A stretch of DNA of 55,409 bases from a virus (lineage: Duplodnaviria > Heunggongvirae > Uroviricota > Caudoviricetes): the IMG/VR virus record IMGVR_UViG_2531839531_000009. One strand, given 5' to 3'. The position numbers and the translations under genes were made by a program. Of this stretch, positions 36,355 through 45,905 are shown one piece after another. Numbering within the stretch: the stretch's first letter is position 1; each line of letters begins with the position of its first letter. The notes below the pieces were generated by a model. That model searched no databases. It worked only from the letters and a program-made list of their open reading frames with translations, and was not told the origin of the DNA.

Positions 36355-37146
36355 ATGAGCGAGAAATTGAAGATTGGCTATCGCCCTTTACAAGAACTGT
36401 CTCCGTATGCACACAACGCCAGGACACACAGCCCTGAGCAGGTGGCACAACTGGTAGAAAGCATTAAGCAATTCGGCTGGACTAATCCGGTGCTGATTGA
36501 TGAAAAGGGCGAAATTATTGCTGGTCACGGTCGCGTTATGGCGGCTGAAGTGCTCAAAATGGATTCCATTCCGGTCATCGTTCTGTCTGGTTTGATGGAT
36601 GATCAGAAAAAGGCGTACCGCCTGGCAGATAATCGCCTGCCGATGAATGCTGGCTGGGATGAAGATCTGTTACGGATGGAGCTGTCGGACCTAATCAATG
36701 CTGATTTTGATGTCTCCCTGACAGGCTTCAGCCCGACAGAAATTGATGAACTGTTGACGGATGTTTTGCCCGGTACAGGAAATGAGGAGGAGCCGTATAC
36801 GACGAAAATTGATACGCCTGTTTATGAGCCGTCGGGCGGTAAACCGGATATCAGTGAACTGTACGACGATACGAAAACTCAGGAGCTGATCAGCCGGATA
36901 CGTTCGGCGTCCCTTGATCCTGATATTGAGAAATTCCTCCTGTGTGCGGCAGAACGTCACACGGTGTTTAATTTCAGCAGAATTGCGGACTATTACGCTC
37001 ACGCCCCCGCTGAAATTCAGTGCCTTTTCGAGGATTCGGCGCTGGTGATCATTGATTATCAGCAGGCTATTGAAAATGGATTTGTCCGGATGACGCAGCG
37101 CATGGTGGAGATCATGCATGGCGGGGAGGAGGAGGAATATGCGTGA
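36355..37146 (+). CDS. ParB N-terminal domain (ParB/Srx-like) protein
   Basis: 263 aa; N-terminal LSPYAHNARTHSPEQVAQLVESIKQFGWTNPVLIDEKGEIIAGHGRVMAA is a ParB-N signature; no methyltransferase motifs. Confidence 0.65.
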   Translation: MSEKLKIGYRPLQELSPYAHNARTHSPEQVAQLVESIKQFGWTNPVLIDEKGEIIAGHGRVMAAEVLKMDSIPVIVLSGLMDDQKKAYRLADNRLPMNAGWDEDLLRMELSDLINADFDVSLTGFSPTEIDELLTDVLPGTGNEEEPYTTKIDTPVYEPSGGKPDISELYDDTKTQELISRIRSASLDPDIEKFLLCAAERHTVFNFSRIADYYAHAPAEIQCLFEDSALVIIDYQQAIENGFVRMTQRMVEIMHGGEEEEYA

Positions 37147-38071
37147 TGATTTTTGCGCCTTTATTCTGACTCACGGGCGACCGGACAAAGTTCTGACTTA
37201 CCGGACGTTGCGTCGTGCTGGCTATACCGGGAAAATTTTTATCGTTGTTGATGATGAAGATAAGACACGGCATCAGTACATAGCTGAATTTGGTGAACAG
37301 GTGCTGGTGTTTTCCAAATCCGATATCGCCAGTCGTTTTGACGAAGCCGATAATTTCGGTGACCGCCGCTCAATTTTTTACGCCCGTAATGCTTGTTTCG
37401 ACCTGGCAAAACTGGTCGGGTGTAAATTCTTCATTCAGCTCGATGATGATTATCACGAGTTCCAGTTTCGGGTGGATCGCAACTATGACCAGGCCTATTT
37501 TCCGATAAGAAAACTGGATGCGATCCTTTCTGAAATGCTGGCGTACTACGAATCAATACCTGCGCTTTCCATCGCTATGTCGCAGGGCGGGGATTTTCTT
37601 GGTGACAATGGCGGCCATGCTTCGTGGGTGAAACGCAAGGCAATGAACAGCTTTATCTGTTCGGTTGATCGACCGTTCTCATTCATGGGACGCATTAACG
37701 AGGATGTGAATACGTACACGAATCTCGGTCGCTGTGGTGAATTGTTTATGACGATCGGTGCTGTCCAGTTAGGGCAGAAACAGACGCAGAAAAACAGCGG
37801 CGGAATGACCGAGCTGTATCTGGATTCCGGAACCTACGTTAAAAGTTTTTACTCCGTCATGTATGCGCCGTCGTGCGTAAAAATCTCACTGATGGGTGCC
37901 AGCCATAAACGCATTCACCATCAGGTCACCTGGAACAACGCTGCAGTAAAAATCCTTCACGAAAAATACAGGAAGAAGACACCCTGCATATCAATGGGGG
38001 TGACAAATGATTCCGTATTCGAAAGTCGAGTCTCTGGCAGCGTGCCGGATGACTGCACAACAAATCGCTGA
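37139..38071 (+). CDS. putative GT-A-like nucleotide-sugar transferase (DxD motif)
   Basis: Strong SD GGGGAGGAGGAGG; N-terminal AFILTHGRPDKV...IFIVVDDEDK and FFIQLDDDY resemble GT-A/GT2 signatures; assignment by eye. Confidence 0.4.
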   Translation: MRDDFCAFILTHGRPDKVLTYRTLRRAGYTGKIFIVVDDEDKTRHQYIAEFGEQVLVFSKSDIASRFDEADNFGDRRSIFYARNACFDLAKLVGCKFFIQLDDDYHEFQFRVDRNYDQAYFPIRKLDAILSEMLAYYESIPALSIAMSQGGDFLGDNGGHASWVKRKAMNSFICSVDRPFSFMGRINEDVNTYTNLGRCGELFMTIGAVQLGQKQTQKNSGGMTELYLDSGTYVKSFYSVMYAPSCVKISLMGASHKRIHHQVTWNNAAVKILHEKYRKKTPCISMGVTNDSVFESRVSGSVPDDCTTNR

Positions 38072-40689: not shown

Positions 40690-42126
40690 ATGGCTGAGAT
40701 CGAGATTTCTGTAAATCTCAGTTCTTCGCTGATGCGCATTCTTGAGGCTGAAGAAATTCAGCCGGGAACCGACATTGGCTATGAACTGTGTAAACTGCTG
40801 TGGCAGTACCACCCGCTGGGCGGGAAACTTGTCGAAAAACCCATACTGATGGCGATGTGTAAGCCGCGCCAGTACAACGTGGAGACAGACCCTGACGAGC
40901 GGGTTGTGCGGCGTTTTCAGGAGGTATGGGAACGTATGAAGGTTAACGAGAAGATTAAAAATCTTTTTTTTCTGTCTCGTTGCTACGGTGCTGCAGCGAT
41001 CGGCGTGGGCACCGACAGTGTTTCATGTCGTGAACCGCTTCCGACGTTCGGACTGACAGAAGAGGATGTGTATATCAACGCGTGGGATCCGTTGAACGCT
41101 TCCGGTTCGATGGTGACTGACCAGAATCCAAACAGTCCGTTTTTCCAGGAAGCCAATAAAAAGCTGAAGATTGGCGGAAAAGACTGGCATCCGTCACGCA
41201 CACTAAAAATCTTCAACGGCACACCGATTTATCTGGAGTTTCAGAGTTCATCGTTCGGATTCACCGGGCGAAGCGTATTTCAGCGCGTTCTTTATTCCCT
41301 GAAATCCTATATCAATACGATGGAGGCGAATGATCTCGTCAGCCAGAAGGCGGGCGTACTGGTAGCTAAAGTTGTGCAGTATGGCTCGAAACTTGACGGG
41401 ATCATGGCTGCCGCCACGGGACGAAAAAGGGAAAACGTCAAAGAGGCAAAAAATAAAGGTGTGCTTAGTATCGGGAAGGATGAGGATGTTACCTCGCTGA
41501 ATCTACAAAACATCGATGGTGCGCTAAACGCTGCACGCGACAATATTATTTCCGATATTGCGTCAGGGAGTGACGTTCCGGCGATCCTCATTAAAGAGGA
41601 AGCCTTTTCGAATGGTTTCGGTGAGGGGACCGAAGATTCGAAAGCCGTCAGCCAGTATATCGATGGTGTACGCCAGCAGATTGAACCTGTGATGGATTAT
41701 TTCGAACGCCTGGTGCAGTACATCGCCTGGAACGAGGAATTTTATCAGTCGCTGAAAAATGATTACCCGGACATCATAACCGACGACTATAAAACCACGT
41801 TTTACCAGTGGCGACGTGAATTTACCGCGACGTGGCAGGAGCTGGTGGAGGAGTCGCCGGACAAACGCCGGGAAAGCGACAGTAAAGTGATTCAACAGGC
41901 GATAGCACTTTTCTCTGCCGTGTCGCCACAGGTTGATCCTGAAAACCGTGCCGCCGTCACTGAATGGCTGGCAAGCCTTGTTAATGCCACGCAAACCTAT
42001 GGCGAAGCTCCACTCATCATTGATGTGGGCGCGCTGGCGAATTATGAACCACCGAAGCAGGAGACGCCTGATGGCAATTTCCAGCCGGGCGGGGAGGAGG
42101 AAGAGACGGATCAGGACGCTGTATGA
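40690..42126 (+). CDS. putative portal protein
   Basis: 478 aa directly after the large terminase; acidic C-terminus. Confidence 0.6.
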   Translation: MAEIEISVNLSSSLMRILEAEEIQPGTDIGYELCKLLWQYHPLGGKLVEKPILMAMCKPRQYNVETDPDERVVRRFQEVWERMKVNEKIKNLFFLSRCYGAAAIGVGTDSVSCREPLPTFGLTEEDVYINAWDPLNASGSMVTDQNPNSPFFQEANKKLKIGGKDWHPSRTLKIFNGTPIYLEFQSSSFGFTGRSVFQRVLYSLKSYINTMEANDLVSQKAGVLVAKVVQYGSKLDGIMAAATGRKRENVKEAKNKGVLSIGKDEDVTSLNLQNIDGALNAARDNIISDIASGSDVPAILIKEEAFSNGFGEGTEDSKAVSQYIDGVRQQIEPVMDYFERLVQYIAWNEEFYQSLKNDYPDIITDDYKTTFYQWRREFTATWQELVEESPDKRRESDSKVIQQAIALFSAVSPQVDPENRAAVTEWLASLVNATQTYGEAPLIIDVGALANYEPPKQETPDGNFQPGGEEEETDQDAV

Positions 42127-42904
42127 GGTTCTGACGGATGCCGTTAACTACTACGTAAATCACGGGTGGGATAGCGAAAAATCATTGCTCGAATGGTGCC
42201 GGAAACTCCGTGTAGCCGCTCAGCGAGAAACCCCTGATGATACCGTAGCCAGAAAACATCTCACCGCTATCTACAGCCGTCTTGTCATCGACGGCGGGGC
42301 ATTACGGGATCAGCCTCCTGACGGCCCTAAAAAAATCACTGTTGAAAAACTGAAACCTGAGTTTCGCAAGGAACTCGACAGGCGAATTTTCGCCAGTGCC
42401 AACCTGATAAAACTCAACCGAGAACAGGCCATCGAGAAAACCATACAGCGTTTTCAGGGGTGGGTTACGTCCATTCCGCCTGACGGGGTGAGCGAAATTG
42501 ATCGCCGGGAAGTGAAGTCCAGTTTTCAGAAGTCCGTGAAGGATATGGATTTTATCAGTCGCCGGGTGGCAATTGACCAGGGGCATAAGCTGGCAAGCAA
42601 CGTTAAGTATCTGCTGGCTGTTCAGAGTGGTGCGATTGCTCTGCGCTGGCATTCGAACTGGCGGCGTCCGGGCTACAAATACCGACAGGACCACAAAGAG
42701 CGCGACGAGAAAATTTATCTCCTCCGCGATTCTTGGGCGCTGGAGCAGGGGCTGATTAAGCCCGTATATGGTTTTTATGACGAAATCACTGCTGCCGGGG
42801 AGGAGGTTTATTGCAGTTGCGATGCACTGCCGATCTACGCCCCTCAGAAACTACCTGACGAATTTTTAACGGAGAAGGGCAAACGTGAGTTTAACCGAGC
42901 TTGA
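42071..42904 (+). CDS. putative head morphogenesis / minor capsid protein
   Basis: Internal ATG of ORF 41933..42904; typical position after the portal. Confidence 0.45.
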   Translation: MAISSRAGRRKRRIRTLYEVLTDAVNYYVNHGWDSEKSLLEWCRKLRVAAQRETPDDTVARKHLTAIYSRLVIDGGALRDQPPDGPKKITVEKLKPEFRKELDRRIFASANLIKLNREQAIEKTIQRFQGWVTSIPPDGVSEIDRREVKSSFQKSVKDMDFISRRVAIDQGHKLASNVKYLLAVQSGAIALRWHSNWRRPGYKYRQDHKERDEKIYLLRDSWALEQGLIKPVYGFYDEITAAGEEVYCSCDALPIYAPQKLPDEFLTEKGKREFNRA

Positions 42905-44207
42905 AGTGGCAGAACGCATCAGGGACGGAACCGTACCGTCTCCGGTGAAATTCTCCAACATGTGGCTGGTGAATTTGCGAATAACCGGAACCGGGCTTGC
43001 CTATCGCGCCGGGCTGAAAGAGCACGTATGGCGTGATCCAAAGCTCTATCTGAACGAGGAGTTTTTAAGGCGATGCAATGGCCTTCCGGTTATCGCAAAC
43101 CATCCTGACGACGCAGTTCTGACGGAGGAGGATTTTAAATCGCGGATCGTCGGCAGTGTCATGCTGCCGTATATCCGGGGTGACGAGGTATGGGCGGTGT
43201 GCCGCGTTTATCTCCAGAGCATTGTTGAAGAAATCACTGAGGGGGATGTTTCGACAAGTCCGTCGGTGGTGTTCAACAGCACATCAGGAAATGTGGAAGT
43301 ACAGGAAGGTGACACCAATTTTTTAATCGAGGGCGTTCCTTTCCTTGTTGATCACATCGCCCTGGTGACGAAAGACCACGGCTCGCTGGGCGTGTGGGAT
43401 AAAGACCGGATCCCCGCAGGGGTTGAAGTGACAAATACAGGTGAAATTGAGATGGAAAAAGAAGAACTCCAGGCCCTGTTACAGGGGGTGGTTAACGATG
43501 CCCTGAGCGGCATTAATCAGAAAATCGATGGAGTAGTCACGCGCATGGACTCACTGGAACAGCGGGACAAAGCGCGGGCGGACGCCGAAGATCAGGCGAA
43601 AAAAGAGGCCGAAGAAAAGGCCAAAGCCGATGAAGCCGCAGAGGAACAGCGTAAAGCTGATAAAGCTGCGGCAAAGGAGGCGGAAGAAAAAGTCAAAGCT
43701 GACGAGGCGGCAGCTAAAGACGCTGAGGAGAAAGCAAAGGCTGATTCCGAAGCGGAAGAACAGCGTAAGGCTGACGAGGAGGCAGAAAAAGAACGCAATG
43801 ACTCTGCCCTGGCAGAAGCACAGGCTAAAGCCGACTCCGCATTCAGTGCCTGCGGTAAAAACGCGCCAGCACCGTTTTCTGGTGAAAATGCGCTGGACTA
43901 CCGCAAGCGTGCGCTAATCGCTATGCAGAAACACTCTCCGGCACATAAGGACGTCAATATTCGCGCGATTGCGGATTCTGCAACGCTGGCTGTGCTTGAG
44001 GACGCAATTTTCAGTGCTGCCCGTCAGTCCATCGAAAAAGAAATGATGAGTACGCAGGGGCAACTGCATAAACGTATCCGCAACGATGAAGCCGGGCGTC
44101 GCATTACTGAATATCAGGGCGATCCGAACGTCTGGCTAAGTGTTTTCAAAATTCCGGGGCGTCGTCTGGCAAAAATTAACACTCAAGGGAGCCTGAACAA
44201 TGGCTGA
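42885..44207 (+). CDS. putative scaffold/protease-like protein with Ala/Glu/Lys-rich coiled-coil repeats
   Basis: 440 aa, GTG start; central KADEAAEEQRKADKAAAKEAEEKVKADEAAAKDAEEKAKADSEAEEQRKADEEAEKE repeat. Confidence 0.5.
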   Translation: MSLTELEVAERIRDGTVPSPVKFSNMWLVNLRITGTGLAYRAGLKEHVWRDPKLYLNEEFLRRCNGLPVIANHPDDAVLTEEDFKSRIVGSVMLPYIRGDEVWAVCRVYLQSIVEEITEGDVSTSPSVVFNSTSGNVEVQEGDTNFLIEGVPFLVDHIALVTKDHGSLGVWDKDRIPAGVEVTNTGEIEMEKEELQALLQGVVNDALSGINQKIDGVVTRMDSLEQRDKARADAEDQAKKEAEEKAKADEAAEEQRKADKAAAKEAEEKVKADEAAAKDAEEKAKADSEAEEQRKADEEAEKERNDSALAEAQAKADSAFSACGKNAPAPFSGENALDYRKRALIAMQKHSPAHKDVNIRAIADSATLAVLEDAIFSAARQSIEKEMMSTQGQLHKRIRNDEAGRRITEYQGDPNVWLSVFKIPGRRLAKINTQGSLNNG

Positions 44208-44817
44208 TATTAACTTTCATCCGTTTAAAAACCGTGGAGCATTTGGTGGCCTTTTTAACGTCGAATCCCGTGGGCTGATGCAGGGGGATGCGCAGGATGA
44301 TCCGGCAATTCGTCTGCAACTTTGCTCCGGTCGACTGGACAGCAAAATCACTGAGCCGGTATGGGGTGGCGTTGGAGTTATGGAGTGCATTGCTCCCGCG
44401 AAAGACAGCGTTAACGGCGCGGTAATTAAGCAGGCTACACAAAACGCATGTAACGCCTTTACGGTCTTTAATCAGGCATTTCATGGCATTACCACGCCGG
44501 ATAATCCGGTGCCGTTATATCTCGCGGGTGGCTTTGTTCACTATTACCGCGTTGGCTCAGGTGCCCGCATTCCTCTCCCTGTCAGTGCAGAAGTTGTTGC
44601 GCTGGCTGATGGTAATAACACCGTTGCTGCCAGTGGTTTTGTGTGGGATCTGACGAAAAACATGGTTGATGTTTATTCGGGATCACCCGGAGCTAATCCG
44701 AAAGTGGATATTAAATTGCTGATGGTTTCAGTTGACGGAAACCTGACGGTGAAAAAAGAGGATGGCGGTAACGTTGTCTGGGAAATCGGCAAGCCGTGCG
44801 GCCTGTTTTTAATTTAA
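44200..44817 (+). CDS. hypothetical head protein
   Basis: 205-aa ORF between scaffold-like and capsid genes. Confidence 0.4.
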   Translation: MADINFHPFKNRGAFGGLFNVESRGLMQGDAQDDPAIRLQLCSGRLDSKITEPVWGGVGVMECIAPAKDSVNGAVIKQATQNACNAFTVFNQAFHGITTPDNPVPLYLAGGFVHYYRVGSGARIPLPVSAEVVALADGNNTVAASGFVWDLTKNMVDVYSGSPGANPKVDIKLLMVSVDGNLTVKKEDGGNVVWEIGKPCGLFLI

Positions 44818-44831
44818 GGGGATATTAATTA

Positions 44832-45860
44832 ATGAGCGCATTTACTCCTGCGACTACTATTGTGTCGCCGTCAATGGTGCTGCCGGAAATGATCGTGCAA
44901 CAGAGCATGGCTTCCGGTGCGTTTGAAGTCCTGGCTGGCGGTGCTCCAGCGGTAAAAATCAGTTCCAGTGATTTGATGGTCTATCAGAAATATTTACGTA
45001 TGACCTCGCAGGCGCAGGTCAGCCAGTCTCTGCCGGGCCAGTTGCCGTCTTCCAGTATTTCTGGCGGCTATGACGGGATGATGACTTACCGAATTTCTTC
45101 CCGCTCGCAATACAGCTATCTCGATACTGATGCAGCAGATCGCTGGGGCTATTCTCTGATTGAAGGCCTGCGCCTGGCTAACCGCCAGGGACACGCTCAA
45201 ATGTTGCGTAATATGCTGCTGTATGGTGTGAATGCAGCTAATAACGAGGGGATCACCAACTCCCCGAACGCAGTGACGCTGAATCTGGGCAACGACAGCA
45301 AAGGGAATGATTCATATACCACTTGGGATTCCGGCGAGATGGCTAAATTTATGCTTGGCCTGATTGCTGACCAGAAAACCCGCATGTTGCTGCTGGGGCA
45401 GCCATTAACGACTGTCATTCTGAGTCCGCAGCGATTCATGAAGGCGCTGGAGTGGACAGGAATTGTTGAGCTGACCAGTTACCAGCGTCCTGGTGGCGGT
45501 ACCGGAACGGTGGGAACGGTGGTTAAAGACGTCGCTGATAAGGCGACAGGCGATGACATCATTTTCTGCCAGGACGACACGCTGATCGGTAAAGGCGCTG
45601 GTGGTAATGATCTGATCATCGTTACGAACCCGACGATTGAGGTGCCGGAAGCGCGTCACGCCATTAACACCAATATCTTCTCCACGCTGGTTCCGAACCA
45701 GCAGGCCGTCAACGTGATGTTCTGCGATATGGCAGCGCCGACGGAGATCCCGTCCCCTATGCCGGATGGCGGCCTGACCACGTTGTATACCATGCGCGCG
45801 ACGCCGGGCTGGAACTTCCGCCCTGAGGGGATCACCCTGTTGTCTGCCAAATACGCATAA
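44832..45860 (+). CDS. putative major capsid protein
   Basis: 342 aa; followed by a strong intrinsic terminator, as is typical for highly expressed capsid genes. Confidence 0.55.
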   Translation: MSAFTPATTIVSPSMVLPEMIVQQSMASGAFEVLAGGAPAVKISSSDLMVYQKYLRMTSQAQVSQSLPGQLPSSSISGGYDGMMTYRISSRSQYSYLDTDAADRWGYSLIEGLRLANRQGHAQMLRNMLLYGVNAANNEGITNSPNAVTLNLGNDSKGNDSYTTWDSGEMAKFMLGLIADQKTRMLLLGQPLTTVILSPQRFMKALEWTGIVELTSYQRPGGGTGTVGTVVKDVADKATGDDIIFCQDDTLIGKGAGGNDLIIVTNPTIEVPEARHAINTNIFSTLVPNQQAVNVMFCDMAAPTEIPSPMPDGGLTTLYTMRATPGWNFRPEGITLLSAKYA

Positions 45861-45878: not shown

Positions 45879-45905
45879 CGGGGAGCTAAATGCTCCCCTT
45901 TTTTG
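45879..45905 (+). terminator. rho-independent terminator after capsid gene
   Basis: GGGGAGC-taaat-GCTCCCC hairpin followed by TTTTTTG. Confidence 0.55.

Follow-up and report, generated by a model that had tools for sequence, protein, structure and literature searches.

A 440-aa protein encoded among the head genes of a Rac-like E. coli prophage is probably a fusion of a capsid-maturation serine protease with a scaffold, in which a nested start would yield a separate scaffold product and a charged spacer tolerates changes in length. The window analysed here is the whole 55,409-nt stretch of IMG/VR record IMGVR_UViG_2531839531_000009. The gene is a head-assembly gene of an ordinary kind that is mislabelled in databases, where it currently appears as DUF2213, "TolA", "NUDIX hydrolase", "glycosyl transferase" or "hypothetical". 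The first-pass annotation had described the product as a scaffold-like head protein with a coiled-coil repeat. Its location downstream of the portal/MuF-like genes and upstream of the major capsid gene and its helical C-terminal 250 aa agree with that description, but the description is incomplete, as it overlooked the N-terminal 170 aa, which form a capsid-maturation protease domain according to structural modelling.

Gene context

The open reading frame had been delimited exactly, with its GTG start on the plus strand, and the same CDS is annotated in RefSeq in near-identical E. coli prophages (Table 1). At its 5' end it shares 20 nt with the preceding gene, and at its 3' end 8 nt with the following one; the start of the upstream MuF-like gene was taken from the RefSeq annotation of relatives. 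The downstream 205-aa gene invariably lies 3' of the protease-scaffold gene in the 75 loci compared. Its product was without a Pfam or PDB match, and the search at the sequence level for solved relatives of this protein and of the major capsid protein found none. A tail-sheath gene is also present in the prophage. Two further reading frames, one on the minus strand (43592..43798, 68 aa, Ser/Ala-rich) and one in the +2 frame (43630..43917, 95 aa, Lys/Arg-rich), were rejected as genes and are regarded as by-products of the GCN/GAR/AAR-rich repeat.

Table 1. Coordinates of the head-module genes and of the features recognised within the protease-scaffold gene
Feature	Position	Strand	Details
Portal gene	40690..42126	+	Pfam Phage_portal_3 E 1.9e-13; phrog_146 E 1.1e-73
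MuF-like head morphogenesis gene	42071..42904	+	phrog_324 E 2.9e-37; RefSeq CDS in relative L003
Full-length gene (prohead protease + scaffold-like C-terminal part)	42885..44207	+	440 aa, GTG start
N-terminal domain, aa 1-170 (Pfam DUF2213)	42885..43394	+	predicted capsid-maturation protease fold
Codon of His73, motif A-N-H-P-D	43101..43103	+	candidate catalytic His; invariant in 141 representatives
Codon of Ser125, motif S-T-S-P	43257..43259	+	candidate catalytic Ser; T124, S125, P126 invariant
Codon of Glu149	43329..43331	+	candidate third catalytic residue; invariant
Internal Shine-Dalgarno-like AGGTGA	43439..43444	+	7 nt upstream of internal ATG
Predicted nested in-frame gene, M190-G440	43452..44207	+	251 aa, ~27.4 kDa; protease domain absent
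Amphipathic helix, aa 190-226	43452..43562	+	ends in conserved R-M-D-S; 35% hydrophobic; 3.6-residue periodicity p=0.004
Ala/Glu/Lys-rich charged repeat region, aa 227-318	43563..43838	+	length-variable; 10-/14-aa units ending K-A-D
Core degenerate direct DNA repeats	43596..43785	+	five 46-nt copies, spacing 30/42/42/30 nt, 61-78% identical
Conserved C-terminal domain, aa 319-440	43839..44204	+	two helices + beta-hairpin; AF2 pLDDT 90-98
Conserved 205-aa gene	44200..44817	+	phrog_6268; syntenic in 75 loci
Major capsid protein gene	44832..45860	+	phrog_6671 and phrog_264 major head protein

Conserved domains at the two ends

DUF2213 (PF09979) was the only Pfam family matched at the sequence level (aa 46-163; 27.1 bits against a cut-off of 22, thus above the gathering threshold), and no Pfam protease family was matched. 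The 440-aa protein matched phrog_6216 with an E-value of 6e-207, and remote matches were obtained to PHROG families named "head maturation protease" (E 6.9e-7 and 4.2e-5). A sequence search of the PDB with the whole protein returned low-complexity matches only (Erlin, V-ATPase stalk), with E 0.1 or worse. Since hhalign gave no significant alignment between the profile of the family N-terminal domain and T4 gp21 as a single sequence (probability 0.7%, with the Ser mis-registered by 3 residues), the fold assignment rests on structure comparison. The AF2 model of the 440-aa protein had a mean pLDDT of 86.7; in the BFVD structure search it gave 91 matches with E<=1e-3, many of them named prohead protease, and the top-ranked proteins in a Foldseek comparison with the PDB agreed with a protease fold at E-values of only about 5e-3. 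Judged from sequence and model, aa 1-170 form a protease domain with the fold of T4 gp21 and herpesvirus assemblin, which is also that of HK97 gp4.

Residue conservation was determined over 141 family representatives clustered at 50% identity. A His/Ser/Asp triad has been reported for T4-type proteases (PMC5694885). In herpesvirus enzymes the third catalytic residue is His. The candidate His and Ser are accompanied here by Glu149, 24 residues after S125, and D156 and H157, which are at least 90% conserved, are also candidates for the third residue. At the other end of the protein, E334 is invariant and G324, Y339, R340, R342 and others are at least 90% conserved; we infer that this C-terminal domain binds the capsid.

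An internal translation start

Downstream of the protease domain, an in-frame internal ATG is preceded by a ribosome-binding site of its own. Of 141 sequences, 118 have M, 18 have V and 2 have I in the alignment column of M190 (138/141 together), with neighbouring columns not conserved, and each of the 84 DNA copies has ATG at this codon. In these copies the ATG is preceded by AGGTG or GAGGT, placed in two different codon registers. An SD-like 5-mer was found at the internal start in 69 of 74 distinct relatives and at other in-frame ATGs in 44 of 720 (6%). The sequences behind these SD and ATG statistics are related to one another, and the counts cannot be treated as independent. The choice among synonymous codons is likewise fixed at codon -4, where Gly is always GGT (50/50) and Glu always GAG (23/23), compared with 28% and 35% elsewhere. 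From this ATG and its SD, which is conserved at the nucleotide level, a scaffold product of 251 aa is predicted, resembling the arrangement of lambda C/Nu3. No sigma-70-like promoter was found on the plus strand between 42000 and 46500, so that the internal product would rely on translation initiation alone.

The charged repeat and its length alleles

A tandem repeat at the protein and DNA levels had been placed at approximately 43590..43800. The repeat is present about there, but it is degenerate, of mixed period and weak at the DNA level. Its protein units are 10 and 14 aa long (30 and 42 nt) and end in KAD; the region terminates in a conserved A-Q-A-K-A-D-S, and A+E+K make up 62-82% of 40-aa windows over aa 221-320. 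Self-similarity was above that of composition-matched controls: autocorrelation of the protein at a lag of 38 aa had z=5.4 (maximum-lag p about 0.001 against residue shuffles), and DNA self-similarity had p about 0.017 against codon shuffles. Tandem Repeats Finder, which had been suggested as a check, returned only a fragment of 12-nt period (43584-43626), whose score of 42 is below the default threshold of 50.

The coiled-coil label could not be upheld for this region. Bulky hydrophobic residues (LIVMFWY) make up 2% of it, and there is no 3.5/3.6-residue periodicity, with Ala counted too (p>0.1); the helix preceding the repeat (aa 190-226), in which R220 and D222 of the R-M-D-S are at least 90% conserved in the 141 representatives, is the only amphipathic one. 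Opposite-charge pairs at i/i+4 number 26 in the repeat against 14.1 expected (p<0.0005). Lacking a heptad pattern of hydrophobic residues, the repeat looks like a charged single helix and not a coiled coil. AF2 predicted helices at aa 192-237 and 256-322, and its pLDDT falls below 50 for aa 233-254, which makes the helical state of this part uncertain. We consider that aa 227-318 are probably a charged, single-helix spacer.

Comparison of repeat copy number among relatives, also proposed in the first-pass annotation, revealed alleles of 440, 434, 433, 432, 430 and 415 aa that differ only inside the repeat, the flanking parts of 225 and 123 aa being constant in length. The variation was found through DNA searches and IMG/VR loci; the best 120 protein-search matches were all of 440 aa and at least 98% identical and therefore gave no information on copy number. 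Two natural deletions lie within the core repeats, one of 30 nt (window 43623-43652) and one of 75 nt (about 43704-43778). Linker length in the family ranges from 96 to 327 aa, a broad tolerance that speaks for a permissive spacer and against a precise ruler. An invariant repeat in a protein of non-structural function, which had been named as the outcome that would speak against the earlier reading, was thus not what was observed, since repeat length varies and the protein is a head-assembly protein.

It could be supposed that the protein is a scaffolding protein and nothing else, with a coiled-coil repeat serving as a ruler, so that the number of units sets scaffold length and thereby affects head assembly. 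The gene does lie in a head module, its C-terminal half is helical and repeat-number alleles exist. However, the modelled maturation-protease fold of the N-terminal 170 aa with its invariant His and Ser, the lack of hydrophobic heptads and the width of the family linker range, together with the coexistence of the 415-440-aa alleles in near-identical prophages, make this reading very unlikely. It is less improbable, though still unlikely, that the repeat is neutral low-complexity filler generated by replication slippage, which merely joins two conserved parts. The indels bounded by imperfect direct repeats, the homogenisation of units in some alleles (e.g., four EAAEEQRKAD copies in L027) and the widely tolerated length would all be expected of filler. 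On the other hand, all 148 representatives have kept a charged linker, never shorter than 96 aa, and the D-specific motif described below, the pattern of i/i+4 charges and the amino-acid composition are kept across lineages (50% identity clusters) that are about 35-53% identical to the 440-aa protein.

The motif [KR]-x-D-[AS] is 5.8-fold enriched in the family linkers (z=50), an enrichment inflated by tandem duplication of repeat units, and its Glu version, [KR]xE[AS], is depleted to 0.42-fold. In a scan of 11 head and tail proteins, five copies were found in the 440-aa protein and one elsewhere; the motif was absent from the capsid, portal, MuF-like and terminase proteins. Only five strict motifs occur here because most repeat units end in KAD-E or KAD-K and not in KAD-A/S. 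In the downstream 205-aa protein, R-L-D-S (aa 45-48) was rejected as a cleavage site, as it is not conserved beyond the closest relatives. It was reported that T4-type prohead proteases cut after the acidic residue of short X-x-E motifs and auto-cleave their C-termini, with extra sites yielding small fragments (PMC5694885). These sequence patterns suggest, without proving it, that [KR]-x-D-[AS] marks sites of cleavage by the protein's own protease domain. A tentative possibility, though less likely than not, is that the repeat is mainly an array of such sites, cut before A/S, in which copy number would determine the size of the scaffold fragments and the length of the spacer would be secondary. 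The enrichment with depletion of the Glu version, the near confinement of the motif to this protein within the module, the conserved RMD-S (220-223) and KAD-S (315-318) that bracket the variable part, and the multiple acidic sites of related proteases are in its favour. Against it, the enrichment could descend from duplication of one ancestral unit, and no other head protein has a conserved copy of the motif.

It is hardly credible that the database names are right and that the gene encodes an envelope protein like TolA, a NUDIX hydrolase or a tape-measure protein. Phage records do say "TolA protein" and UniRef "NUDIX hydrolase", and weak TolA and tape-measure profile matches cover aa 187-336. 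However, the TolA match (NCBIfam) reaches 27.7 bits against a cut-off of 59.45 and is confined to aa 222-336 and the low-complexity repeat; the 440-aa protein has no NUDIX match, an extra N-terminal NUDIX domain being found in 47 of 87 relatives; and the gene is in the head module rather than the tail module. All three identities are contradicted by the evidence of domains and context.

Discussion

Under the fusion with a nested start and a tolerant spacer, which is preferred here, a single reading frame would give two products. The full-length protease would be the minority product, translated from the GTG start by coupling to the upstream gene, and the 251-aa scaffold would be the majority product, made from the internal ATG with its conserved ribosome-binding site. 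As the C-terminal part is common to both, the protease could co-assemble with the scaffold inside the procapsid. The repeat would act as a charged spacer or tether, probably a single helix, whose exact length is not critical, so that gain, loss and homogenisation of units, arising as the imperfect 30/42-nt repeats slip or recombine with one another, could be tolerated. More speculatively, the scaffold may be cut at the [KR]-x-D-[AS] sites into small acidic peptides, which would exit the capsid during maturation.

About 1.5% of the complete genomes of E. coli carry the gene, and no fewer than 1,800 clusters of its protein (50% identity) are represented in genomic and metagenomic data. It is conceivable, although on balance doubtful, that the DUF2213 family as a whole consists of widespread, unrecognised protease-scaffolds that shred themselves. 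If this were true, the nested start would set the ratio of protease to scaffold across the family, and the hypervariable repeat would be an evolvable array of Asp-specific [KR]-x-D sites, cut before A/S; the cuts would free the capsid-binding C-terminal domain and break the tether up into small, acidic peptides. An N-terminal NUDIX (or toxin-like) cargo would moreover be carried into the capsid in about half of the family, and the NUDIX-fused relatives hint at capsid-targeted enzymes.

The current understanding of phage assembly is unchanged by these findings. Their practical value lies in annotation, as the gene can be named a head-maturation protease/scaffold that probably harbours a nested scaffold gene. 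Simple predictions on the amount of spacer needed and on the position of the cuts also follow from the length alleles found in nature and from the D-specific motif.

Comparison with known systems

In both T4 gp21 (PDB 5JBL), to which phiKZ gp175 and SPN3US gp245 are related, and the 440-aa protein, where the catalytic residues are candidates, the His lies in N-H-P and the Ser about 52-55 residues later. The context of His85 in T4 gp21 is L-N-H-P-P and that of His73 here A-N-H-P-D, with a His-Ser spacing of 55 and 52, respectively, although the two proteins have no significant sequence similarity. The acidic three-residue motifs and C-terminal auto-processing of T4-type proteases (PMC5694885) parallel the [KR]xD motif proposed here; the proposed P1 residue, based on sequence, is Asp, whereas that of the T4 type is Glu. 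The T4 scaffold gp22 is encoded by a separate gene, whereas the scaffold-like part is here fused in frame.

The family to which the 440-aa protein belongs (Pfam DUF2213, PHROG 6216) is listed as of unknown function in both databases. In a Burkholderia Tn-seq/CRISPRi study, a DUF2213-containing gene was taken as an "essential domain" and a phage protease was not recognised (PMC8770471). The repeat resembles ER/K-type single alpha-helices and the TolA central domain in its high charge, Ala-richness, i/i+4 pairs and predicted long helix, a resemblance that is compositional only and implies no homology; the weak TolA profile matches are caused by this charged, Ala-rich composition.

P2 gpO and Mu gpI/gpZ combine an N-terminal protease with a C-terminal scaffold and adjoin the major capsid gene, as here, and no sequence relationship to them was detected for the 440-aa protein. 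P2 gpO cleaves itself and is reportedly made at full length only, with no nested start (bioRxiv 10.64898/2026.09.13.751334). Nested in-frame pairs are formed by gpC/Nu3 of phage lambda, UL26/UL26.5 of herpes simplex virus (HSV) and gp17/gp17.5 of the archaeal virus HFTV1, and a length-polymorphic Ala/Glu/Lys repeat has been described for none of these systems. The protease of lambda gpC is of another fold family (ClpP/SppA-like), and the herpesvirus protease (UL26) has the fold that was modelled for aa 1-170. In such pairs the full-length protein comprises protease and scaffold, and the internal start gives the more abundant scaffold with the same C-terminus (bioRxiv 10.64898/2026.09.13.751334); the gene described here has the internal RBS and ATG, from which the corresponding product is predicted.

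Probable protease domain and head module

The open reading frame proposed in the first-pass annotation was recovered exactly as placed (plus strand, GTG start, 440 aa); its GTG lies inside the upstream gene, giving a 20-nt overlap. The same CDS is annotated as "DUF2213 domain-containing protein" by RefSeq in near-identical E. coli prophages. The order of the head module is terminase small and large subunits, portal, a MuF-like morphogenesis gene, the gene under study, a conserved gene for a 205-aa protein and the major capsid gene, with a tail sheath gene further downstream; the whole element is a Rac-like prophage with an integrase and RecE/RecT-like genes.

Coordinates of the features discussed
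Feature	Position	Strand	Remarks
ParB-like and glucosyltransferase-like genes	36355..38071	+	phrog_620, phrog_842
Portal gene	40690..42126	+	Pfam Phage_portal_3; portal family phrog_146, E 1.1e-73
Gene under study	42885..44207	+	GTG start, 440 aa
Internal SD AGGTGA	43439-43444	+	upstream of internal ATG
Internal ATG (M190)	43452	+	start of predicted nested product
Antisense ORF	43592..43798	-	68 aa, Ser/Ala-rich
Five 46-nt repeat copies	43596-43785		spacing 30/42/42/30 nt
Alternative-frame ORF	43630..43917	+	95 aa, Lys/Arg-rich
205-aa protein gene	44200..44817	+	phrog_6268
Major capsid protein gene	44832..45860	+	product 342 aa
Terminator-like GC-rich hairpin	45880..45898	+	7 pairs, 6 G-C, then TTTTTT

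The sole Pfam match was DUF2213, covering aa 46-163 with 27.1 bits (cut-off 22), and two PHROGs "head maturation protease" families were matched remotely (E 6.9e-7 and 4.2e-5). Among 1.84 billion cluster representatives 1,833 relatives were found, and in an alignment of 141 of them H73, T124-S125-P126 and E149 were invariant while D156 and H157 were conserved in at least 90%. The AlphaFold2 model built on this alignment had a mean pLDDT of 86.7 (>90 for aa 1-170 and 300-430); its top Foldseek matches were weak (E about 5e-3), and predicted viral structures gave 91 matches at E<=1e-3, many of them named prohead or capsid maturation protease. His73 lies in A-N-H-P-D, resembling L-N-H(85)-P-P in T4 gp21, and the His-to-Ser spacing is 52 residues compared with 55 in gp21. 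Since hhalign of the family profile against the gp21 sequence was not significant, it is from the predicted fold, the invariant residues and the genomic position that aa 1-170 are concluded to be a probable capsid-maturation serine protease domain. The earlier reading as a scaffold missed this domain and was incomplete.

The names given to this family in databases are artefacts. "TolA" comes from a match spanning the repeat only, with a score far below the cut-off, and isolated-phage homologues are also named "glycosyl transferase" or "hypothetical". "NUDIX" stems from an additional NUDIX hydrolase domain (about 120-170 aa) at the N-terminus, present in 47 of 87 DUF2213 protease-scaffold relatives (among family members P0121-P0269); one relative has a PBECR1 nuclease-like domain, and the window copy has no extra domain. 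Such domains look like cargo taken into the capsid by the protease-scaffold. One study of a Burkholderia gene also handled DUF2213 as an "essential domain" and did not recognise a phage protease (PMC8770471). The window gene is a mis-annotated member of an already known type of head-assembly gene.

Several neighbouring features were also observed. In relatives, the portal gene bears the RefSeq name "anti-CBASS protein Acb1 family protein", despite its position and portal-family matches. In 75 related loci the 205-aa gene directly follows that of the protease-scaffold; its product carries a conserved FNVES-G-TQGDAQDDPA motif near the N-terminus and had no Pfam match and no PDB sequence match, and decoration or another head component are among its candidate roles. 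The terminator-like hairpin is directly 3' of the major capsid gene. Just upstream of its terminase genes, the related phage Rac-SA53 has eltIIaA/B (heat-labile enterotoxin IIa; L001 216..1356) where the window has the ParB-like and glucosyltransferase-like genes, and this position looks like a swappable cargo slot.

Probable nested scaffold start

At the alignment column just past the protease domain, 118 of the 141 sequences have M, 18 have V and 2 have I, with flanking residues not conserved. The M190 codon was ATG in every one of 84 DNA copies, taken from the window, three annotated relatives and 80 IMG/VR loci; upstream of it stood AGGTG (spacing 8) or GAGGT (spacing 7). These occupy two codon registers (ACA-GGT-GAA... 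or GAG-GTG...) encoding different amino acids, and therefore the SD-like motif is conserved at the nucleotide level. An SD-like 5-mer was located 4-11 nt upstream of the internal ATG in 69 of 74 distinct genes, compared with 44 of the 720 remaining in-frame ATGs (6%). At codon -4, Gly was GGT in 50/50 and Glu was GAG in 23/23, against usages elsewhere in these genes of 28% and 35%. No internal promoter-like site was found for the nested gene. These sequence patterns point to a probable scaffold gene nested within the protease gene, with a predicted product M190-G440 of 251 aa and 27.4 kDa. Nested protease/scaffold arrangements are known in lambda (C/Nu3), HSV-1 (UL26/UL26.5) and, recently, HFTV1 (gp17/17.5; bioRxiv 10.64898/2026.09.13.751334).

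Repeat structure and length variation

Ala, Glu and Lys make up 62-82% of residues about 221-320. A tandem repeat had been claimed here at protein and DNA level, and it is real and above the expectation from composition, yet degenerate and weak in the DNA. The 46-nt copies are only 61-78% identical, and Tandem Repeats Finder picked up only a 12-nt-period fragment (score 42). In the protein, the units are 10 and 14 aa, every one ending in K-A-D, with autocorrelation peaks at lags of 24 aa (z 4.8) and 38 aa (z 5.4); the maximum was matched by 0.1% of residue shuffles, and at the DNA level by 1.7% of codon shuffles. Both ORFs overlying the repeat were rejected as genes, being by-products of its repetitive codon composition.

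The proposed coiled coil was not borne out. Residues 227-318 have 2% bulky hydrophobic and 58% charged residues (net charge about -11), without 3.5/3.6-residue periodicity of hydrophobic or Ala positions (p>0.1), and contain 26 i/i+4 opposite-charge pairs versus 14.1 expected (p<0.0005), which is the sequence signature of a charged single helix. AlphaFold2 predicts helices at 192-237 and 256-322, with pLDDT <50 at aa 233-254. An amphipathic helix (35% hydrophobic residues, periodicity p=0.004) occupies aa 190-226, just before the repeat, and is a better candidate for oligomerisation.

Copy-number variation among relatives, as foreseen, was found. Where the N-domain was 89-100% identical, the segments before (225 aa) and after (123 aa) the repeat were constant and the repeat alone varied.

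Length alleles in close relatives
Repeat (aa)	Total (aa)	Remarks
92	440	form in window
86	434	units homogenised into four EAAEEQRKAD copies
85	433	
84	432	N-domain 89% identical
82	430	
67	415	

The 30-nt deletion removed one unit between direct repeats identical at 13/14 positions (AAAGCYGATGAAGC), and the 75-nt deletion likewise lies between short direct repeats. The segment occurs in 82 of 5,426 complete E. coli genomes; among the 60 listed, the full 449-nt form was seen in 45, the -30 form in 13 and the -75 form in 2. In 148 divergent representatives the whole linker joining the two conserved parts ranges from 96 to 327 aa (51-81% A/E/K/Q/R/D); such wide tolerance of length speaks for a permissive spacer and against a ruler.

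Some near-identical copies (loci L035, L031, L054 and L032; E. coli genome copies H39/H40) are truncated or frameshifted, leaving aa 1-345 only, aa 1-201 only or a product of 386 aa whose C-terminus diverges, which points to decaying prophages. PP818812.1 (Actinobacillus phage vB_Apl-pPE4; 25309..26631) has 97% DNA identity to the window gene, which is unexpected across host families given its recorded host, Actinobacillus pleuropneumoniae; perhaps the host was wrongly assigned or the phage is an E. coli prophage that had been induced.

Proposed assembly model and related systems

Across the linkers of 141 representatives, 582 copies of [KR]-x-D-[AS] were counted where shuffles predict 100 (5.8-fold, z=50), whereas the chemically similar [KR]-x-E-[AS] was depleted (0.42-fold). 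Tandem duplication of repeat units inflates the [KR]-x-D-[AS] count. Conserved copies, R220-M-D222-S and K315-A-D317-S, flank the variable part. Among 11 window head/tail proteins the strict motif occurred five times in the protease-scaffold, once in the 205-aa neighbour, at a site that relatives do not conserve, and in none of the others. T4-type prohead proteases cut after an acidic residue at short X-x-E motifs, their C-termini are auto-processed, and multiple sites yield small fragments able to exit the capsid (PMC5694885). By analogy, the motifs could, speculatively, be Asp-specific self-cleavage sites.

In the proposed model, the full-length protein would be made in small amounts from the overlapping GTG and the nested scaffold in excess. 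Amphipathic helix, charged spacer and conserved C-terminal domain would be common to the two products, the last of these presumably binding the capsid protein, so that the protease would be built into the procapsid; after assembly it would remove the scaffold, with the [KR]xD sites as possible cutting points. Neither a [KR]xD[AS] motif nor an N-terminal extension is present in the capsid protein, in keeping with a coat protein that depends on a scaffold and is not cleaved. Structurally, T4 gp21 comes closest; in gene organisation, the closest relatives are the nested pairs of lambda, herpesvirus and HFTV1 together with the P2 gpO fusion.
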